64,000 nucleotides of DNA from Eledone cirrhosa (lineage: Eukaryota): the NCBI GenBank assembly GCA_964016885.1, contig OZ024741.1:335358001-335422000 (forward strand), given 5' to 3'. Positions 7,073-64,000 of this stretch are shown here, piece by piece (within the stretch, counting starts at the first letter, position 1; each line of letters begins with the position of its first letter). The notes beneath the pieces were generated by a model that was not told where the DNA came from, did not search any database, and saw only the letters and a list, made by a program, of their open reading frames with translations. Made by a program: the position numbers and the translations under genes.

Positions 7073-9117
7073 AGTATAAGTGGCTGGGCATTCCACAGAG
7101 TGATTCAGCATGCCACCGTGATAGGACTAGCCATTTGAATTACCAGTACCAGTAGTTAATCCAGAAGTCTTCTAAATAGTTTCCATCTAGCCAGTTTCAC
7201 TCACAAGACAGAGTTGACCCATTGCTATGGTAAATGATATGACCAAATCATCACACAGTGGGATTACTTCTTAACCATTTGGCCATGTTGTATCCACAAT
7301 TACCATATATACTCAAATATAAGCTACCCCCCCCCCCACCACCACCACCACCACCACCTATTTTATGTCTCAGAAATAGGTAAAAATCCCAACCACATTT
7401 ATATGAGGAGGCAGATAATCAACACATAATGTTTAGATAGTGTAGTTTTGAAATTTTTATGAGTGGAGAATATATTTATGAAGTTTTAATATTTTGATAT
7501 TTAAAATGTTTTGTGTGTCGTTTAGAGTGTTGTTTCTTTCACAACTCCATTATGTAATGATTTTTTTACCAATTTCCAACTGTCTTAAAAGCCATATTCA
7601 TTCAAATCATTAAAAGCAATAGGAAATATGAATTTCATGTTAAAAGTGAAGCCAGTGTAATATTCCCCTCCAAAGTAAACCCAGTGTAATTTTCACCTCC
7701 AAAGTGAAAATATTTCAGCACCTCATCTATGTGGAGTTTCTAAGTGGGTGAAAATCAGCAAAATATTGACCTCGAATATAAGCTGACCTCCAATTTTAAC
7801 ACCAATTTTTTTTTGTCACATGTTTCTCGACTTATACATAAGTATATACGGTATATAGTTAAGCTTCCAAACAGTTTCACTTACAAGGCATTCCACCATT
7901 TACTGGTGCTAAAGTCTATCCTTTAGAAGGGTTCACTATCTTCCAAAATAGAACCGACAAGATTCTCTGCCAACAATTTGGATTTAATCAGTTTTGTTTC
8001 AGTCATGGCTAATGATATTTAGCACAACTCTTTCTATCTCTCTCATTCTTTTTCTCTATCTCTGTTTTTCTCTTTGTCTCTCTCTTTTTCTCTATCCATG
8101 TCTATCTCCTCCTCTCTCCCCCCCCCTCTCTCTCTATCTATCTGTTCTTCCCTCCCGTACACACACAAACACATATACAGTGGTTAGTGATATTTAACAC
8201 AAAACTTTCTCTCTGTCTCTCTCTTTTTCTCTATCCCTGTATATATATCTCTCCCCCCTCTCTCTCTATCTATCTATCTATCTGTTCTTCCCTTTCCTAT
8301 ACATACACACACATACAGTGGCTATTGATATCTAACAGAACTCTCTCTCTCCCTCCCTTTTTCCCTCTCGCTCTCCCTCTCTTTCTCTCTCTCTCTCATT
8401 CATAAACACACTCTTTTCTCCCTTCTATAACCCTGCTCCTTTACACACAAATACATTCACACATACATACACATACACACATACACACACATACACACAA
8501 AAAAGATGTGAAAACACAAACATATATAAACACTCAGAAATGCACAAACACACTCACAAATGCATACACACACATAAATGCACTTATACACATATAGAAA
8601 CAAACCTACATACATACTCACACTCACTCTATTTCCATGCCTTATATTTTCACCCTCTCTCTTTCTGGCTCTCTGTCACTTTCATCAACTCTCTAATGAC
8701 ACATACACATACAAATACACATACATACATATACACACATACATACACAAACACACTCACATATATGCATATAAATGGAACTGGACACAAATCACTCTCT
8801 CTCTCTCTATAATATATATATATACTATAAATTATGTCCATAGAATCATTTGATAAGATATATACACCATTTCCTTTCCCAATTAGCATAATAAACCACA
8901 CAAAAAACCAATTAAACCAGGCTATAAGATTAAAAGGCACCTATGAAGAAATAATAGATAAATAAACAACAGCCATCTATTCGCGATCAACAGCTATAGA
9001 ATATTTACCCAGCATTTCAATAGCACGTGGAAATCGATTAAATATATCGTCAACCATACACAATTAGGTATAACATTAAAGTTAGAAGAAAAAATGCATA
9101 TACACATACCAGGATTA

Positions 9118-9201
9118 TGTTTCTACCCTTTAGGGTTTCGTTCGCTTTTAGAAATATCCTATCAAGGATAAATTCTCGAGCTTCGAACTCATCAGGAAAC
9201 A
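9118..9201 (-). ncRNA. Type I hammerhead ribozyme, intact core
   Basis: Minus strand: stem I UGUUUC/GAAACA, CUGAUGA, 49-nt stem II GUUC...GAAC, GAAA, stem III CCC-UAAA-GGG, GUA site. Confidence 0.9.
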
Positions 9202-9402
9202 AACTCACTTGGACGAAGATTTTTCTTAAATGATCCTCGCCAGAAACAAATTCAAAATGGCTAAGAACTGTGACGTGGCATGGTCAAATATATATATGTA
9301 TGTAAAAGGTAAACAGAAATAACAACGCAATCGGTACATTATATATTTGAGGGGACGGGCGGGTTGGAATTGGAAAAAATGTCTTTAGATAAAAATATAT
9401 AT

Positions 9403-9918
9403 CATCATCATCATCATCATTTTACGTCTGCTTAATCTGGCTTGATTTCTACAGCTGGATGCCCTTCCTAACACCAACCTCATTTACAGTGAGTGCTGGG
9501 TGCTTTTTTTCCGTGGCACCTACACGTCCACTTTACAGTGTCGGCTGGGTGCTTTTGTGCCGTGGCACCTCCACGACCAGTTTGCAGTGGAATGATAGGG
9601 ACCCCTGTCCTATCATCTCATTTCTACACCTGAGTAAAGTGGAGCAATTTGAAATAATAATAATGAAAATATTGTGTACAGTGTTCAGGTGCACTACAAC
9701 TCATCAAAAAGTGTATGTATAGTACATAGGGTAATGTACAAACGTCAGGAAAATTAACAGTGATGATATACACATGTGTGCATGTGTATGGAAGGGGTAC
9801 ATCAGGTGTAGAAATAAAGTGTCTTGCTCAAGGAAAAAACACATCACCCAGTTGTGAGAATTGAACTCACAACTTTTCAATTGCAAGGCCAATGCTCTAA
9901 CCACTAAGCCATGTGCCT
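9403..9918 (-). mobile_element. tRNA-head/RTE-tail SINE interrupted by another repeat (9652-9812)
   Basis: Matches the full copies at 26331 and 32030; (cat)n tail. Confidence 0.8.
9652..9812 (-). mobile_element. 3' end of a non-LTR element with a (TTA)n tail, family unassigned
   Basis: gatgagttgtagtgcacctgagcactgtacacaataatttcattattatt also near 21525-21735, 25540-25720, 26070, 57640 and 59108. Confidence 0.6.
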
Positions 9919-12457: not shown

Positions 12458-12552
12458 AAATTATATATTTGTATATATATTTATATATAAATATTATATA
12501 TATATATTATATATGTATATATATATATATTTGTATATATATGTAAATATAT

Positions 12553-15500
12553 ATTGGGAAATGACGATGGGATGGGTGGTGTAGGTATACTACTAGCTGA
12601 CAAGTGGGTAGATAAAGTAATCTCAGTGTACAGGGTAAATGCAAGAAGCATTAAACTCAGACTAGTCCTAAATAAAACAATTACCACAATAATATCAGCT
12701 TACGCACCCCAATCGGGGTTGCGAGACGAACTTAAGGATAGGTTTTACGAGTCCGTAATGCACACTACTGCTCTAACAAACGACAATGACTTCCTAATCA
12801 TCGCAGGAGATTTTAACCGACACGTAGGTAAACACTGCGACGGCTTCAATAGAGTCCATGGAGGCCATGGGGTTGGCACAAGAAATGAGGAAGGATTCAG
12901 ACTTCTAGAATTCTGCGACACCAATGACATGTCAATATGTAACACAAACTTTAAAAAACCCGACAACCACCTGATCACCTATAGATCAGGGGAGCATTCT
13001 AGTCAGATGGATTTTATCCTCATCAGAGGACATGACAGATGGACGGTCGTAAACACAAAAGCCTTCCCTAGTTAGGAATGTACATCCCAACATAGCTTAG
13101 TTGTCAGCGACCTCACAGTCAGAACTAGACGAACCTGGAAACAGAGGCCAACCTGGAGAAGAAAGATCTGGAAGCTGAAAGACCCCTCAACCAGTAACAG
13201 ATTTAAAGATATTTTACTCAACACCTACGACAGTAAAGAAGAACAGATAGACACATTCAATGTAGAAGAGAACTGGGAGTTCCTAAAAAATAACTTACTA
13301 GAGGCGACGGATGAGGTCTGTGGCTGGAGTAAGACCACAAGCAGGAAGAGAGTGACTTGGTGATGGAAAAATAAGGTAGATGAGGCAGTTAAGGCCAAGA
13401 GAGAGGCATGGGAAGAATGGGGGGAGCAGGGTACATTACATAGAGACCAAGAGGGAAGCTAGGCGACAAGTATACTTAGCTAGGAGGGAAGCAGAGGATG
13501 GAAAATTCAAGCATGTTTTGCAACGTGAGAACCAGAAACAGGAGGTGTTCAAGATTGCGAAGCAGTGTGTCAGAGAGAATTGTTATGTCATTGGAGAGAA
13601 GTGTATCCGGAATAATAAAGGTGAGCTTGCCCTCACAAGTGCTGAGAAGAAAGATGCATGGAAGAGTCATTATGATAGATTACTAAATGAGGAGAATGCA
13701 TGGGAAGAAGAGACCCTACTCCAAGTAGACCCTATAGAGGGACCAGCAGTACAAGTCAGCAGCAGCGTAGTAAGTAAGGCAATCAAAGATATGAAGATGG
13801 GGAAGGCAACCGGTCCATCGGGTATAGCTGCCGAGATGCTGAAGGTCACACTATAACCACACGTATTGTTAACCAGGTAATACTAGAAGATGTCATACCA
13901 AAAGATTGGTGCAGTAGCATCATTGACAACTGCTACAAAGGCAAAGGTGATGAACTAGATAGAGGAAACTATAGAGGTATAAAGCTGATGGACCAGGTCA
14001 TGAAAGTAATAGAAAGAGTTATAGCACAGTTGATTAGGGACCGGGTGAAACTAGACGAAATGCAATTTGGGTTTGTACCAGGAAGAGGCACCACTGATGC
14101 CCTCTTCCTTGTCAGGCAGTTACAGGAAAAGTACCTAGCTAAAAATAAGCCACTATACCTGGCATTTGTCGATCTTGAGAAAGCCTTTGACAGAGTTCCA
14201 CGTGTTGTAATCTGGTGGGCTCTTAGAAAACTAGGAGTAGATGAATGGCTTGTGAAAGCGGTACAAGCCATGTATAGGGGCGCAGTCAGCAAAGTTAGGA
14301 TTAGCAATGAGTATAGTGAGGAATTTAGCGTACAGGTTGGGGTCCACCAGGGCTCTATTCTTAGCCCCTTTCTGTTCATCATAGTCCTGCAGGCAATAAC
14401 GGAGGAGTTTAAGACCGGATGCCCATGGGAACTCCTGTATGCTGATGACCTCACACTTATAGCTGAATCTATGGTAGAACTAGAGAAGAAATTCCAAACT
14501 TGGAAACAGGGACTAGAAAGAAAGGGTCTCAAAGTCAACATGACAAAGACTAAGGTCCTTGTAAGTAGACGAGAAAACAGAACCCAGATCCCCTCAGGGA
14601 AATGGCCTTGCTCAGTATGTAGGAAAGGTGTAGGTAGGAACTCCATTCTTTGCCCCAAATGCAAACAATGGGTACACAAGTGATGTAGCAGGATCTCAAG
14701 AAGCTTAATTAAGAATGTAGGCTTCACATGCAGCAGCTGTGCTGGGACAGCAAGCAGCAAACAGTCACAGGAAACAAGTACCACCAATCTCTGGGAGGGC
14801 TCTGTAGAAACAGGAGACAGCTTCTGCTACCTAGGTGACCGAATTAGCAGCGGAGATGGGTGTTCAGAAAGTACAATAACTAGGGTAAGAACGGGATGGA
14901 AGAAGTTCAGGGAACTACTGCCACTGCTAGCTGCAAAAGGCTTTTCCCTCAAAATTAAAGGCAGACTGTATGATGCGTGTATCCGAACAGCGATGTTGCA
15001 TGGTAGTGAAACCTGGGTGCTGAAGGTGAAAGACTTACGTAGATTAGAGAGAAACAAAGCCTGCATGCTCCGATGGATGTGTAATAGTAATATACGCGAA
15101 CGACAAAGCATAAATGAATTGAGAGAGAGACTGGGCATAAGAGGAATCAAATGCTGTGTGCAGGAGAGGCGGTTACGTTGGTATGGACATGTGATGTGTA
15201 TGAAGTGTGACAGCTGCATAAAAAGGTGCAGAGCACTAGAAGTCGATGGAAACCGCGGTGTGGGGAGACCCAAGAAGACCTGGGATGAGGTGATAAAAGC
15301 CGACCTTACCCAATTACACCTCTCAAAGATGATGACACACGACCGTGACCTCTGGCGTCACGCAGTAATACAGAGTACTCGACCTCCCATGGGTACAAGC
15401 TGAAGCATATAGACAATATGCCCCCTCACCCCCACTGCAAGGTGGTCGTGGAGGTGCCACGGCAAAAAAGCACCCAGCCCACACTGTAAAGTGGACGTGT

Positions 15501-15691
15501 AGGCGCCACGAAAAAGCACCCAGCACTCACTGTAAATGAGGTTGGTGTTAGGAAGGGCATCCAGCTGTAGAAATCAAGCCAAATCAGTTCCTGTATGAGC
15601 ATGGCATGGTCAGCCGACCAGACACTGCCCATAACAGGACAACCCGTCTAACCCATGCTAGCGTGGAAGAACGGACGTAAAACGGTGATGA
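12553..15691 (+). mobile_element. 5'-truncated, disrupted RTE LINE (AP endonuclease + RT + PHD-like finger + 3' UTR)
   Basis: APE motifs GGVGIL, SAYAPQ, AGDFN, SQMDFI; RT motifs QFGF, FVDLEKAFD, GVHQGS, YADD; stops/frameshifts near 13073, 13361, 13850 and 14681. Confidence 0.95.
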
Positions 15692-16490: not shown

Positions 16491-16556
16491 TATTTCATTA
16501 TATATATTTCAGGGATATCATATTAAAAATATGTTATGCCTTCTTCAGACAAAATA
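16491..16556 (-). ncRNA. Type I hammerhead (inverted twin of 16644-16709)
   Basis: Reverse complement of the + copy. Confidence 0.8.
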
Positions 16557-16643: not shown

Positions 16644-16709
16644 TATTTTGTCTGAAGAAGGCATAACATATTTTTAATATGATATCCCTGAAATATATAT
16701 AATGAAATA
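16644..16709 (+). ncRNA. Type I hammerhead, palindromic stem III
   Basis: Stem I UAUUUUGU/AUGAAAUA, CUGAAGA, stem II AGG...CCU with inner CAUAUU/AAUAUG, GAAA, AUAUAUAU palindrome, H=A. Confidence 0.8.
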
Positions 16710-16945
16710 AATATGATTTTATAAATATAATTTCCATTTATTTAATATCGTAAATATACTCCAAATACTTGTTGAGTGCTTTTATATCAGTTATAAATAT
16801 TTACTCGTTGTAACCCAACAATTTAAATATAACTTTCCATATATATATATATATGTTTATCCCAGGTTCAATTGGGGGTAACCACAGTAAGTAAGGTACT
16901 CAATACATAGCTGAGTATAAATATTTAATATAGAAATGGCTTCTA

Positions 16946-16993
16946 CAGGACTAGAACTGTTTCATTCGAGAGAACTCATCAGGAAGCCCTGTA
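16946..16993 (-). ncRNA. Degenerate type I hammerhead
   Basis: CUGAUGA-GUUC-UCUC-GAAU-GAAA-CAGU; distal stem I UACAGGGCU/AGUCCUGUA, proximal pairs mismatched. Confidence 0.55.
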
Positions 16994-26330: not shown

Positions 26331-26712
26331 GGAGGCACATGGCTTAGTGGTTAGAGCATTGGACTTGCAACCGAAAGGTTGTGAGTTCAATGACTGGGTG
26401 ATGTGTTGTTTCCTTGAGCAAGACACTTTATTTCACATTGCTCCAGTTTACTCAGGTGTAGAAATGAGATGATAGGGACTGGGGTCCCTATCATTCCACT
26501 GCAAAGTGGTTGTGGAGGTGCCATGTCAAAATATCACCCAGCCTACACTGTAAAGTGGACGTGGAGGTGCCACGGAAAAAAAAGCACCCAGCACTCACTG
26601 TAAACGAAGTTGGTGTTAGGAAGGGCATCCAGCTGTAGAAATCAAGCCAGAATCAGTTCCCGTCCCACCCTTGCAAGCAGGGAAAAGTGGACGTAAAATG
26701 ATGATGATGATG
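26331..26712 (+). mobile_element. Full-length tRNA-head/RTE-tail SINE
   Basis: A/B boxes; 3' end nearly identical to the RTE end at 53237-53300. Confidence 0.9.
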
Positions 26713-28260: not shown

Positions 28261-28352
28261 GTAGGGGGTGAGTTTTATTGTAGCACAATAAAGCAATACA
28301 AGTATCGGATAAGTAGCACTCAACAGTTTATAGGACTGGAGTATAAATAATT

Positions 28353-28787
28353 TCTGGTAATTTCTCTAATCGTAATTGCCCTGTTAGAACTAAATGTCCT
28401 CTTAGTAATCAATGTCTTGATAAAAATTTAGTGTATGAATGTAAGGTTATAACTGGTACTAATTCTTTTACCTATTTTGGTTCCACTTCCACTTCCTTTA
28501 AAGCAAGATTTTATAATCACAATTCTTCTTTTAAAAGAACTAACACGGCACTCTCAGAACTCATATGGTCCTTAAAGGACAAAAATATTAACTACAACAT
28601 TTCTTGGAGGAAGGTTTGCAACGCCTCTCCTTACCTGAATTCTTCCCTATCCAGAACATGTAATCTCTGCCTAGCGGAGAAATTTACCATTATCTCTAAT
28701 TTTAATTCTATAATAAATAGACGTACGGATTTATTTTCGCTCTGCTTGCATAAATCCCATAGAACTTTCCATAAAGTATACAGCTAA
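28353..28787 (+). pseudogene. C-terminal GIY-YIG endonuclease of a Penelope-like element (Naiad-like), 5'-truncated
   Basis: NCPVRTKCPLSNQCLDKNL-VYECKV...TYFGST...FKARFYNH...TALSELIWSLK...CNLCLAEK...SLCLHK. Confidence 0.85.
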
Positions 28788-29742: not shown

Positions 29743-29813
29743 TATTTTATCTGATGAGAACGCAAATATCATCCCATGATGATATTTGTTTTTGAAATGC
29801 ACATAATAAAATA
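29743..29813 (+). ncRNA. Type I hammerhead of the PLE
   Basis: Stem I UAUUUUAU/AUAAAAUA, CUGAUGA, stem II GCAAAUAUCAUC/GAUGAUAUUUGU, GAAA, AUGCACAU, H=A. Confidence 0.9.
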
Positions 29814-35499: not shown

Positions 35500-35558
35500 G
35501 CTGTCTGATGAGGTCAAGGCTGTTGAATAATGGTTATCACCGAAATATATATAACAGC
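35500..35558 (+). ncRNA. Type I hammerhead, palindromic stem III
   Basis: Stem I GCUGU/ACAGC, CUGAUGA, GGU...ACC, GAAA, AUAUAUAU, H=A; inside fold-back 35213-35612. Confidence 0.85.
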
Positions 35559-47520: not shown

Positions 47521-49203
47521 ATCAGGATGTTGTTGGAGATAAGTGTGTCTGGAATGATGCAGGTGTACTTAGTGTCACGAATGATCAGAAAAAGGAGGCC
47601 TGGAAATGTCATTATGAGAGACTGATGAATGTGGAGAACAAATGGGAGAGAGAGAAATTACCCCATTAAACTTGACAGAGGGACTAGCTATTGAGATTGA
47701 CAAATATAGGGTCCAAGATGCAATTAAGGAAATGAAAAATGGTAAGGCTGCTGGACTGTCAGGGATAGTTGCTGAGATGTTGAAGGCATCAGGAGAAGTA
47801 GGCACTAAACTGGTTGCACGCATCATCAATCAAGCTATATATGGTGGTGTCATACCCAAAGACTGGTGCAGCAGTATTCTCATAAATTGCTACAGAGGTA
47901 AAGGGGATGCTCTGGAGAGGAGCAATTATAGGGGCATAAAGCTGATGGCTCAGGTTATGAAAGTGGCCGAGAGAATATTAGCGCAACTAATTAGAGAAAG
48001 GGTCAAATTAGATGAAACGCAGTTTGGTTTTGTGCCTGGGAAGAGTACAACAGATGCCCTCTTCTTAGTGAGACAACTACAAGAGAGGTTCTTAGAGAAG
48101 AATAAGCTGCTATACATAGCTTTTGTTGACCTAGAGAAGGCCTTTGATAGGGTACCCCAATCTGTCATCTGTTGGTCCCGAAGGAAACTAGGTATAGAGG
48201 AATGGCTTGTGAAGACAGTACAAGCTATGTACAAAGTAAGAGTAGGAATGGAGTTTAGTGAGGAATTCCAGATACAAGTACGAGTACATCAGGGTTCGGT
48301 CCTCAGCCCACTCTTGTTCATTATAGTCCTCCAAGCCATAACAGAGGAGTTTAAGACTGGCTGCCCATGGGAAATTCTCTATGCTGACGATCGGGTTATT
48401 ATAGCAGAATCAGTAGAGGAGCTAGAGAATAAATTCTGGCAATGGAAACAGCAGTTGGAATCAAGAGGACTGAGAGTGAACATAGCTAAGACAAAAGTGT
48501 TGATAAGTAGAAAAGAGGACAAAACTCTGATTCCGTCAGGGAAATGGCCATGTTCGATATGTAGGAAAGGAACTGGCATAAATTCTATAAAATGTACACA
48601 ATGCAGATCTTTGGTACACAAGAGATGTAGTGGGATAGAAGGCAAACTAACAGGTAGGGAAAACTACATATGCAGTAGATGTACAGGGCAATTTGACAGT
48701 AGTAATCACAGTGATAGACACATTTTTCAAATTCAGGTGGGCTCTATAGAAGTGATTGATAGCTTCCAGTACCTAGGTGATCAGATTAGCATGGTAGTAA
48801 GACATGGGCAGCAACTAAAGAGGATATGCGATGGCTGGAGAGAAATGAAGCAAGCAATGTGTGTGAACGACCAAGCATAGATGAGTTGAGAGAGAAACTG
48901 TGTATAAGAGGGATAAGTTGTGGTGTGTGGGAGAGAAGACTGAGATGGTATGGACATGTGATGCGCATGGAGGATGACCGGTGGGTAAAGAAGTGCCAAG
49001 AAATCCCAGTAGAAGGAAGACACAGTAGAGGAAGACCATGAAAAACATGGGCGGAGATAGTGAGAGCAGACCTCAGATCGCTGAAGCTCACGGAGGAGAT
49101 GACGAAGGACCGTGACAAGTGGAGAGATGATGTGCTGAATAGGAGCCGTCCAACCCTTGCAAGCAGGGAAAAGCGGACGTAAAATGATGATGATGATGAT
49201 GAT
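47521..49203 (+). mobile_element. RTE LINE fragment with internal deletions
   Basis: RT motifs FVDLEKAFD and YADD, PHD-like finger, (atg)n tail; same subfamily as 50692-53300. Confidence 0.95.
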
Positions 49204-50691: not shown

Positions 50692-53302
50692 CATGGTGGG
50701 CACAGTTACAGTTCAAGAAATGAAGAAGGAGTGAGACTTCTTGAATTTTGTGATGCAAGTACATTGACTATTTGCAACACAAACTTCCAGAAACCTGCCA
50801 ATAAACCTAATAACCTACAAATCTGGTGAGCACATAAGCCAGATTGACTTCCTGCTAGTTAGGCAGCGGGACAGGCAGATAGTGTCTAATACCAAGGCAT
50901 ACCCTGGGGAAGAATGTACCTCACAGCATAGGTTAGTTGTTAGTGATATCTCAGTAAGCAAGAGATGGAATGAGACATATAGGAAGGTGTGGAGAAGAAA
51001 GGTCTGGAAGCTAAAAGACCTTTCACTAAAATTCAAATTTAGGAAAGCCCTTCAAGATGTATACGACGAAAAAGAAGACGATTTAGAGACGTATGACATA
51101 GATAATAACTGGAAGTTCTTACGTGACAACTTGCTGAAGGCTACTGATGAAACCTGTGGCTGGAGCAGAGCTCCAACCAGACAGAGAGTGACCTGGTGGT
51201 GGAACAGCACAGTAGATAAGGCTATTAGAGACAAAAGACTAGCATGGAAGGCTTAGAAAAAGGGTGGGAGTAGGGAAGAATATACAGCCACTAAGAGAGA
51301 AGCTAGACGTCAGGTGTACTTAGCACGCAGGGAGGCAGAGAGTAGGAGGTTTGCCAATGTTCTGCGACGGGAAGATCAGAGGCGTGTGGTGTTCCACATT
51401 GCAAGGCAGTGTGTCAATGCAAATCAGGATGTTGTTGGTGATAAATGTGTCCGGAATGATGCCGGTGTACTTAGTGTCACGAATGACCAGAAAAAGGAGG
51501 CCTGGAAATGTCATTATGAGAGACTGATGAATGTGGAGAACGAATGGGAGAGAGAGAAATTACCCTTGGTAGATCCGACAGAGGGACCAGCTATTGAGAT
51601 TGACGAATATAGGGTCCAAGAGGCGATTAGGGAAATGAAAAATGGTAAGGCGGCCGGACCATCGGGAATAGTTGCTGAGATGCTGAAGGTATCAGGGGAC
51701 GTAGGCACTAAACTGGTTGCACGCATCATCAATCAGGCTATATATGGTGGTGTCATACCCAAAGACTGGTGCAGCAGTATTCTCATAAATTGCTACAAAG
51801 GTAAAGGGGATGCTTTGGAGAGGAGCAATTATAGGGGTATAAAACTGATAGATCAGGTTATGAAAGTGGCAGAAAGGATTTTAGCACAACTAATTAGAGA
51901 AAGGGTCAAACTAGATGAGATGCAGTTTGGTTTTGTGCCTGGGAAGAGTACAACAGATGCCCTCTTCTTGGTGAGACAAATGCAAGAGAGGTTCTTAGAG
52001 AAGAATAAGCCACTATACTTAGCCTTTGTTGACCTAGAGAAGGCCTTTGATAGGGTACCCCGATCTGTCATCTGGTGGTCCCTAAGGAAGCTGGGTGTTG
52101 AGGAATGGCTTGTGAGGACAGTGCAAACTTTGTACAGGGGTACTCCCAGTAAAGTCAGGGTAGGAATGGAGTTTAGTGAGGAATTCCAGATACAAGTAGG
52201 AGTACATCAGGGTTCGGTCCTCAGCCCGCTCTTGTTCATTATAGTCCTCCAAGCCATAACAGAGGAGTTTAAGACTGGCTGTCCATGGGAACTTCTCTAT
52301 GCTGACGATCTGGCTCTTATGGCAGAATCAGTAGAGGAGCTAGAGAATAAATTCCGGCTATGGAAACAGCAGTTGGAAGCAAGAGGACTGAGAGTAAATC
52401 TAGCTAAGACAAAAGTGTTGATGAGTAGAAAAGAGGACAAACCCTGATTCCGTCAGGGAATGGCCATGTTCGATATGCAGAAAAGGAACTGGCATAAATT
52501 CTATAAAATGCACACAATGTAGGTCCTGGGTACACAAGAGATGTAGCGGGATAGCAGGCAAACTAACAGGTAGGGAGAAATATGTATGCAGTAGATGTAC
52601 AGGGAAATTAGACAGTAGAAGTCGCACTGATAGACACATTTTTCAAATGCGAGAGGGCGCTATAGAAGTGGTGGATAGCTTCCGGTACCTAAGAGATCAG
52701 ATTAGCATGGGAGGAGGGTGTTCCGAGGCCATAGTATCTAGAATAAGGATGGGTTGGAAGAAGTTTAGGGAGCTGCTTCCTCTGTTGACGAAGAAGGGTT
52801 TCTCCCTGCGTACGAAAGGCCGGTTGTATGATGCCTGTGTGAGGAGCGCGATGCTGCATGGTAGTGAGACATGGGCAGCAACCGCAGAAGATATGCGACG
52901 GCTGGAGAGTAATGAGGCAAGCATGCTCCGTTGGATGTGCAGTGTAAATGTGCGTGAACGACCCAGCATAAATGTGTTGAGAGAGAAACTGTGTCTGAGA
53001 GGGATAGAATGTAGTGTACGGGAGAGGAGACTGAGGTGGTATGGACATGTGATGCGCATGGAGGATGACCGATGGGTGAAGAAGTGCCAGGAAATGCCAG
53101 TTGAAGGAAGACGTGGTAGAGGTAGACCACGAAAAACATGGGCGGAGGTGGTGAGAACAGACCTCAGATCATTGAAGCTCACAGTGGAGATGACGAGGGA
53201 CCGTGACGAGTGGAGAGATGCTGTGCTGAATAAGACCCGTCCCACCCTTGCAAGCAGGGAAAAGCGGACGTAAAATGATGATGATGATGATGATGATGAT
53301 GA
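50692..53302 (+). mobile_element. 5'-truncated RTE LINE with few lesions
   Basis: End of APE (SQHRLVV), full RT (QFGF, GVHQGS, YADD), C-terminus ending at 53273, (atg)n tail; stop at ~51254, frameshifts at ~50805 and ~52445. Confidence 0.95.
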
Positions 53303-54280: not shown

Positions 54281-54400
54281 TCCAGATGGCCATTTCGTTA
54301 TAAGATTTCTACATTTTGGGATAATTTCCAAGTTATGTAGAAACTTGTATATAATCCATAGTTTTATACACAAGCGGGCTCTTATAAACTCATCAGTGGA
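54281..54400 (-). ncRNA. Type I hammerhead with 93-nt branched stem II
   Basis: Stem I UCCA/UGGA, CUGAUGA, basal helix plus two hairpins, GAAA, AUGGCCAU palindrome, AUC. Confidence 0.85.
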
Positions 54401-56173: not shown

Positions 56174-56244
56174 TATTTTATTATGCGCATTTCAAAAACA
56201 AATATCATCATGGGATAATATTTGCGTTCTCATCAGATAAAATA
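56174..56244 (-). ncRNA. Type I hammerhead, same family as 29743-29813
   Basis: Near-identical sequence with perfect palindrome AUGCGCAU; short inverted partial at ~56305-56338. Confidence 0.9.
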
Positions 56245-62992: not shown

Positions 62993-64000
62993 CCCAACAT
63001 AGCCTCATAGTTAGTGACCTCATAGTCAGGACTAGACGTACTCGACAACAGAGGAGGACTACCCTGAGGCAAAGAATATAGAAGTTGAAGGACCCCACAC
63101 AGCCAGTAACAAATTTAAAAGCATATTACTTGATGCTTTTGACAGTGAGGAAGAGCAATTAGAGACGTACAATATAGAGGAACAGTGTGAATTCTTGAAA
63201 GTTAAACTGCTGAAGGCGACAGTTGGAATCTGTGGCTGGAGCAGACCTGTGGGCAGGAGGAGAGTAACATGGTGGTGGAACAGTAAGGTTGAGGAGACAA
63301 TCAAAGCCAAAAAAGCAGGATTGGAAAGTAAGGCAGGATGGGGGAAGTAGAGAACACTATCAAGTGGCCAGGAGAGAAGCTAGGAGGCAAGTGTACTTTG
63401 CAAGAAGGGAAGCAGAGGATAGAAAGTTCAAGCATGTTCTACAACGCGAGGACCAAAAATGTGAGGTGTTCAGCATTGCAAGACAATGTGTCAAGGAAAA
63501 CTGTGATATTGTTGGGGAGAAGTGTGTTCATAATGATGATGGTGTACTCACTCTCACTGATACTGATAAGAAGGTGGCTTGGAAGTGATACTATGAGAGA
63601 CTATTAAATGAGGAGAATAAATGGGAAAAAGATAGTCTGCCCCAATCGATCTAATAGAGGGACCAGCAGTGCAAGTTAAAGGTAGTATAATAAGTAAGGC
63701 AATCAAATATATGAAGACAGGCAAGGCAGGTGGGCCTTCGGAGATAGTTGCTGAAATGCTGAAAGCATCTGCAATGGTAGGACATACTATGGTCATCCGG
63801 ATAGTAAACCAAGTAATACAGAATGGGGTCATACCAAATGACTGGCATAGCAGCAGCATCATTAAGTTAGTTGACCAGGTCATGAAGGTCACAGAAAAAG
63901 TTATAGCACAACTAATCAGAGATCGAAATGCAGTTTGGGTTTGTGTCAAGTAAAGGTACCACAGATGCTCTTTTCCTTGTACAACAACTACAGGAGAAGT
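62993..64000 (+). mobile_element. Degraded RTE LINE fragment running off the window
   Basis: ARREARRQVYFARREAE, GKAGGPSEIVAEMLK peptides homologous to the 12553 copy. Confidence 0.9.

Follow-up and report, generated by a model that had tools for sequence, protein, structure and literature searches.

A type I hammerhead ribozyme in a truncated copy of a non-coding retrozyme family of Eledone cirrhosa, with probable traces of its cleavage among Penelope-type insertions

Main finding

The window analysed here, a continuous stretch of 64,000 nucleotides from Eledone cirrhosa, carries on its minus strand a complete type I hammerhead motif (9201-9118, read from the sequence). With good confidence we take this motif to be part of a probably dead-end copy of a non-coding retrozyme, which was likely copied into (TA)n by a Penelope-type enzyme, likely of the Hydra type; in vivo, the hammerhead of this retrozyme likely cleaved some of the template RNA.

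Anatomy, fold and detection of the ribozyme

The ribozyme is composed of the following parts:

9118..9201, minus strand: type I hammerhead ribozyme motif, with core, three stems, fold and covariation
9201-9196, minus strand: 5' strand of stem I (UGUUUC/GAAACA); stem I is open
9189..9195, minus strand: catalytic core CUGAUGA (C3-A9), CUGANGA in 15 of 15 aligned family members
9140..9188, minus strand: extended stem II region of 49 nt, with 5 bp from G10.1-C11.1 and then an A-rich internal loop
9170-9155, minus strand: inner hairpin UAUCCU-UGAU-AGGAUA within the 49-nt stem II region
9125..9139, minus strand: GAAA core and stem III A-CCC-UAAA-GGG-U, the tetraloop form; palindromic in many relatives
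9123..9124, minus strand: predicted cleavage site 3' of A17 (H17 = A9124), equal to unit 387/388, where sister copies start

The sequence-only reading had called this the most canonical ribozyme of the window, which holds in that the other site with stems as long (16988-16938) has G.U at 10.1-11.1. The complete core, the G10.1-C11.1 pair, the inner UAUCCU/AGGAUA helix and the CCC-UAAA-GGG hairpin all read as claimed, and the cut that it predicted 3' of the minus-strand A at 9124 agrees with the placement of H17 and with the corresponding unit site at which sister copies begin. Its 6-bp stem I needs qualification: six pairs are present, but the sixth, U-A, owes its existence to a private G>A at 9118, where the family has U.G. 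Two further changes private to this copy, at 9150 and at 9149, make the middle segment of the stem II extension weaker, and all three changes inside the window ribozyme (9118, 9150 and 9149) are of the CpG type.

A strict descriptor (stem I of at least 6, stem II of at least 4 and stem III of at least 4 bp) gives two sites in the 64-kb window, whereas 100 block-wise dinucleotide shuffles give no site at all. The hammerhead fold is close to the MFE fold (-21.5 kcal/mol, z -3.0, with 2 of 200 shuffles as good), from which it differs in that the MFE fold places stem II one register off and takes up a core base. An Rfam search gave no hammerhead match for 9118-9201 at the gathering threshold or at E<=10, probably owing to its long stem II. 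Recognition by a library model is not one of the features that define this ribozyme. A terminal loop 2 is absent after 4 bp, an unpaired GAG beside stem I is conserved and the internal loop of stem II is A-rich; the unpaired GAG and this A-rich loop could substitute for the canonical tertiary contact between loop 1 and loop 2.

Hammerhead-like motifs of other families are found elsewhere in the window. The one at 16938-16988 (-) combines a long stem III with the G.U at 10.1-11.1 mentioned above, and two more lie at 35500-35558 (+) and 54281-54400 (-), the latter with a stem II region of 93 nt. One minimal hammerhead is present in two copies inverted head to head, at 16491-16556 (-) and 16644-16709 (+), and this pair is a Penelope-type two-armed insertion of another family.

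A dispersed family of ORF-less 687-bp units

The ribozyme lies in a truncated member of a repeat family, delimited in the window as follows:

8825..9287, minus strand: 5'-truncated copy of an ORF-less hammerhead retrozyme, 463 of 687 bp (unit ~225-687)
8825..8846, minus strand: the family's fixed 3' end (unit 687), the inferred start of reverse transcription, 300 nt downstream of the cut
8808..8824, no strand: (TA)n target tract at the 3' end
9288..9297, no strand: (TA)n tract bordering the truncated 5' end, a microsatellite in which no target-site duplication is resolvable

This locus had been described as an island of about 470 bp, flanked by TA and without an ORF. The TA flanks stand and no frame exceeds 79 aa, which is the longest open frame of the unit, but the island is one copy among a large family and not unique. 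When the genome was searched with the 466-bp island, all 40 scored matches, which come from 4034 first-look candidates, were 95-100% identical over nearly the full length of the island. Most copies extend upstream into a 687-bp unit repeated head to tail, and the window copy differs from the family majority at 12 positions (2.6%). Exact-pattern counts give at least 174 3' ends followed by TA and at least 277 and at least 324 matches at two internal sites, so that the family certainly has hundreds of copies and likely thousands. These are dispersed over many contigs with fixed 3' ends, variable 5' ends and no flanking pair of LTRs. Most are shorter than a monomer (median 288 nt), only 1 of 90 is long enough for two ribozymes, and the tandem arrays are short, with at most about 2.4 units seen. 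A DNA transposon (MITE) inserted in TA was also considered and is ruled out by the variable 5' ends, the fixed 3' end and the tandem units.

The unit is thus a non-LTR retrozyme of a known kind, while the family itself is new and bears Penelope-type insertion marks. Openly licensed main texts in PMC and bioRxiv yielded no paper that treats this family or describes retrozyme copies starting at a hammerhead cut; the 687-nt family may already be catalogued in a repeat database.

Upstream of the ribozyme, at unit ~200-275, lie words that we take to be a CCAAT box and CRE/E2F-like motifs. They recur in diverged relatives, and this region is possibly an internal Pol II promoter. The window copy keeps only its 3' part (9230-9287, -). 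This copy has neither the CCAAT box at unit 203 nor the tail, and the hairpin of unit positions 125-144 is missing too; it is therefore probably unable to act as a source, and the locus is probably an inert dead-end copy. It spans its own cut, which implies that its template was uncut or re-ligated RNA.

The longest array (L010:814-3172, -) has 2.4 units, the middle one being a mosaic of its neighbours; its appearance is that of an insertion of 987 nt that began at the cut and was followed by a local duplication of one period, or of an assembly merge. Scars of RNA editing were sought in 310 segments, duplicates not removed, and the rare variants gave no strand bias (A>G 7.8 versus T>C 7.7 per 1000).

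The window holds other repeats as well. A tRNA-like head (Rfam, 33 bits) at 9854-9911 (-) and 49-bp tandem units recurring at 9483-9589, 15429-15536 and 26497-26604 are likely parts of SINEs. Broken LINE frames resembling endonuclease and reverse transcriptase, identified by eye at 12491-15403, 47618-48880, 50768-53273 and 63036-63953, are presumably RTE-like.

Relatives and selection on the ribozyme

Relatives at 67-90% identity retain an ORF-less unit of 650-700 nt. In an alignment of 15 members, from which the distant and misaligned L258 was left out, 12 of 24 stem pairs have changed on both sides. None of 500 shuffles reaches 12, and controls with a slid structure give 2-4 such pairs. Kinship among the sequences inflates the shuffle test, so that more weight is given to the named swaps, as in stem I with UUUC/GAAA, UCUC/GAGA, CUUC/GAGG and UCCC/GGGA. 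Stems I and III pair in 94-98% and the inner stem II more loosely, in 68%. This pattern of covariation argues for a real, structurally selected hammerhead.

A clan of ORF-less relatives is found at L235, L240, L241 and L213-L227, with terminal branches of similar length throughout (about 0.02). This implies that the source lineages diverged far faster than the inserted copies aged.

Selection on the family has to be kept apart from selection on the window copy itself, for which there is no indication. That the locus is a working monomeric ribozyme used by the host is a reading we hold to be extremely unlikely. The intact core with G10.1-C11.1, the 4-bp stem III closed by a tetraloop and an MFE fold close to the hammerhead would all suit it, but the locus belongs to a set of hundreds of copies with about 95% identity, has diverged by 2.6% from the majority, shows CpG-type decay within the ribozyme and is missing the upstream part of the unit. 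The predicted probability of the active fold also falls from about 0.2 in a fragment of 84-111 nt to 0.03 in its own context, the whole 463-nt copy.

Copy 5' ends at the predicted cut

At the level of the family, copies that start on the base after the predicted cut and carry an extra TT form a solid footprint, which has the appearance of one left by cleavage and suggests that the ribozyme likely cut RNA in vivo before a Penelope-type enzyme copied DNA from the cut RNA. Two samples were used, both made up of exact-pattern, first-listed matches on contigs C1-C4 and not of random draws. The first consists of 90 of the 174 copies, chosen solely by their 3' end. Four of the 90 start exactly at unit 388, where about 0.1 is expected per base (Poisson p 4e-6), and two further copies start at unit 389. 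Within 25 nt 3' of the cut, 17 of the 52 copies at risk come to an end, compared with 0 of 35 within 25 nt 5' of it (p 5e-5), although only the excess at the exact site is clean because TA microhomology can explain part of the pile at 389-410 (403-410). The second sample comprises 71 sites selected through the sequence immediately 3' to the cut, reduced to 65 by removing 6 shared with the first; 7 of them end no more than 3 nt from the cut, 5 exactly on it, with 0.7 expected (p 8e-6).

Of the 9 exact starts, 6 have an additional TT in front of them; among 86 other ends, 2 do. Genome-wide, 8 of the 277 matches at the cut site are preceded by a non-G base and TT, whereas none of the 324 at a control TA|G site are (p 0.002); 6 of these 8 sites are already among the sampled copies. 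Individual loci fit the same pattern: L133 spans from the cut to the 118 end, a length possible from a cut monomer, and L166 starts at the cut and continues through a full further unit with its own ribozyme. L090 speaks against it, having one arm that stops near the cut and another that spans it.

The majority of copies reaching the cut continue past it (35 of the 52 at risk in sample 1, 58 of the 65 in sample 2), which means that cutting was partial or not needed. The unit junction, at which position 687 comes upstream of position 1, is crossed by 17 of 90 copies. Read-through and junction crossing together imply that uncut multimers or re-ligated circles served as templates, both of which fit equally. 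Neither sample has a clear pile-up of transcription starts upstream of the ribozyme. Contigs of X1 and X4 contained abundant variants of the family but no ends that were informative. The read-through copies contain no scars of template jumps at the cut: 148 of 154 retain A17, as they do the adjacent bases.

An alternative source of the excess at unit 388 would be a hotspot of reverse transcriptase stopping or template switching at the three-way junction of uncut RNA, for example a strong stop where stems III and I meet, with a ribozyme that is structurally kept but rarely cuts in vivo. This has in its favour that the majority of copies span the site, that the available excerpts on Poseidon-Ac describe cleavage as dispensable in vitro, ribozyme mutants still inserting (PMC11167929), and that 8 of 9 Xenopus retrozyme dimers stayed uncleaved in vitro according to the consulted part of bioRxiv 10.64898/2026.07.22.740005. 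We nevertheless consider it unlikely. The excess coincides with the exact scissile bond and is confined to one side, with 0 of 35 ends in the next 25 nt; the extra TT is free of TA microhomology and fits run-off at an RNA end; and a stop caused by structure should lie at unit ~393, the 3' foot of stem I, and not within the junction. Partial cleavage of the template therefore remains the preferred reading.

Penelope-type insertion marks and the search for a partner

The 3' ends of arms in loci L001-L190, overlapping loci retained, fall at two positions: 174 at unit 687, with a TA overlap of 5 nt, and 21 at unit 118, with no more than 4 at any position elsewhere. The two fixed ends lie 118 nt apart, giving a tail of about 118 nt. 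In 33 of these loci arms are present on both strands, mostly head to head. The features of Penelope-type insertion are therefore all present, namely a partial tandem, an inverted 5'-truncated arm, a tail with two ends and a (TA)n target.

An abundant autonomous element of the same genome likewise has two ends, a tail of about 95 nt and (TA)n. Its coding region is represented by one frame:

L228:3210-5492: 760-aa frame without stops, from an abundant autonomous Penelope-like element with Hydra-type marks

These marks, identified by eye, are DKT, CxCX5C, CxxC and CxH, with RWI in place of RWK. Neighbours of the frame in the atlas are labelled GIY-YIG/RT and serve as leads; Pfam and PDB searches with it gave no match. 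The 3' part of this element consists of an endonuclease frame, a 3' UTR of about 1 kb and a hammerhead with palindromic stem III about 50 nt before the (TA)n end, and such 3' parts occur in the window at 28347-28787 (+) together with 29743-29813 (+), and at 56174-56244 (-).

The 687-nt unit has no sequence similarity to this family of the 760-aa frame, the sole Hydra-type family compared. A genome search for Penelope-like elements (PLEs) returned 59,831 first-look candidates and many other PLE families. None of the PLE frames in the fetched loci is joined to the unit where inspected, L090 having been inspected closely; the frame in that locus was rejected as a partner, as TA tracts and other repeats stand between it and the element. 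Partner searches starting from the endonuclease family of the window, a diverged copy and the shared hairpin led only to further ORF-less relatives.

This small hairpin, at unit 125-144, lies just 3' of the second fixed end and is absent from the window copy. It also occurs in a hammerhead family of about 420 nt that is only about 53% identical overall. The hairpin gives 599 pattern matches and is a candidate for a protein-binding handle. Loci with the shared hairpin are:

L202:1200-1225, minus strand: shared hairpin
L243: shared hairpin
L258: shared hairpin

An alternative origin would make the unit only a pseudo-LTR, composed of 3' UTR and 5' leader and belonging to an autonomous Penelope-like element, with the copies as ordinary 5' truncations of that element. 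The autonomous Hydra-type elements here do share ends, tails and targets with the family, and PLE insertions are mostly 5'-truncated with pLTRs in the excerpts consulted (PMC8557442). It appears very unlikely all the same, since 17 of 90 copies have position 687 and no ORF upstream of position 1, matches to PLE proteins are not joined to the unit where inspected, and the 67-90% identical relatives have the same ORF-less layout. A non-coding unit copied by a protein borrowed from elsewhere is the reading retained here.

Stem III variants: monomer or dimer

The UAAA form of stem III is predicted to be more stable as a hairpin than the palindromic UA variant (-3.7 versus -1.3 kcal/mol) and poorer as a self-duplex (-13.9 versus -18.0 kcal/mol). 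Folding models thus make activity of the UAAA-loop form as a monomer plausible. For palindromes, weak pairing in stem III is described as forcing dimers (PMC4209133, in part); in the axolotl such weak palindromic stems also lead to dimers, and monomers of a U.U variant still reached 22% cleavage (PMC7229834, in part).

A tree of 154 copies with midpoint root, in which bootstrap is not settled and many branches are short, orders the forms from palindromic outgroups (CCAUGG, CCCAUGGG) through CCC-GA/UA-GGG and CCC-UAA-GGG to CCC-UAAA-GGG, to which the window copy belongs. Beyond the UAAA form lies a U10.1.U11.1 clade (100/98), which includes a sister family whose stem III is once more a palindrome. 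Since both ends of the ladder are palindromic, the tetraloop form is intermediate under either rooting. The U10.1.U11.1 subfamily makes up 35 of 120 ribozyme-bearing copies and has thus amplified well, which counts against the main reading. Among the 14 copies starting at unit 385-389, whose subfamilies were judged by eye from linked sites, about 10 belong to the window subfamily, 2 to UA, 1 to UAA and 1 to U.U. As palindromic, dimer-type subfamilies also left cut-start copies, cutting does not need the tetraloop.

It is conceivable, though we hold it only tentatively and with some doubt, that the copies of the clan are a fossil record of germline hammerhead cleavage and its tuning. Stem III would have passed, within one master lineage, from a dimer-type palindrome (CCAUGG, CCC-UA-GGG) through a 3-nt loop to the monomer-capable 4-nt loop of the window copy, and after a weakening of the stem II base to U.U back to a palindrome. 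If this were true, the element would strike a balance between linear monomers released by cutting and templates read through in circular form, the proportion of cut-start copies in each subfamily would be a readout of in-vivo cleavage, and the role of Penelope hammerheads would become directly testable. The series UA, UAA, UAAA and palindrome within one lineage provides a panel for comparing monomer and dimer cleavage.

Proposed mechanism

In the proposed mechanism, a source locus would be transcribed through the unit junction and the hammerhead would cut some of the transcripts, as monomer or dimer. A borrowed protein would nick (TA)n and begin copying the RNA from an internal site, either unit 687 or unit 118. 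Where the RNA had been cut, run-off at the new 5' end with addition of non-templated A would give copies of 300 or 418 nt. On uncut multimers or re-ligated circles, the enzyme would read through the ribozyme, fall off at random and join by TA microhomology; the window copy, with its 463 nt, would be of this read-through kind.

Comparison with known systems

The family shares with metazoan non-LTR retrozymes, as far as the consulted parts of their accounts describe them (PMC7229834; bioRxiv 10.64898/2026.07.22.740005), a non-coding tandem unit with one type I hammerhead each, a low GC content and an occurrence as dispersed monomers and short tandems alongside Penelope-like elements. Its 687 bp fall within the range of 51-972 bp given by Li, Clavereau and Pollet 2026 (bioRxiv 10.64898/2026.07.22.740005, in part), and the U.U at the base of stem II of one subfamily is also found in the axolotl HHR_Amex2. 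In the same excerpts, the retrozyme circles characterised by northern blot measure about 170-400 nt, less than the 687-nt unit, which is represented here by genomic copies alone. The 49-nt multi-segment stem II and the prevalence of sub-monomer copies set the family apart from the retrozymes described there. Fixed Penelope-type ends and a footprint at the cut site, both obtained here from genomic copies, are likewise absent from the parts read of the two retrozyme accounts (PMC7229834, bioRxiv 10.64898/2026.07.22.740005).

With Penelope-like elements of the Hydra clade the family has in common the (TA)n targets, partial tandems and inverted 5'-truncated arm (PMC8557442, in part), and with Poseidon-Ac the two internal start sites of reverse transcription that define a tail and a hammerhead in the repeat (PMC11167929, in part). 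Unlike these elements, the 687-nt unit has no ORF. Its tail of about 118 nt is longer than the 30-40 nt given in the excerpts (PMC8557442/PMC11167929), the Hydra-type element of this genome having about 95 nt. Copy ends mark the cut here, whereas for Poseidon-Ac the consulted passages report no RNA-seq reads ending at the cut (PMC11167929).

A further parallel comes from the R2 retrotransposon, in which extra bases are added on run-off from a template cut by an HDV-like ribozyme (PMC3774820, in part). Ribozyme and protein are different, and in R2, according to these excerpts, the cut frees every element from an rRNA co-transcript, whereas here a minority of copies stop at the cut. The role of the hammerhead in Penelope-like elements is called unclear in the part of PMC8557442 consulted. 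The window locus itself is an ordinary and probably dead copy; it is the footprint of its family that bears on this question, as starts on the exact scissile bond, preceded by bases of the run-off type, are an indirect, nucleotide-level sign that cut RNA served as a template in vivo.
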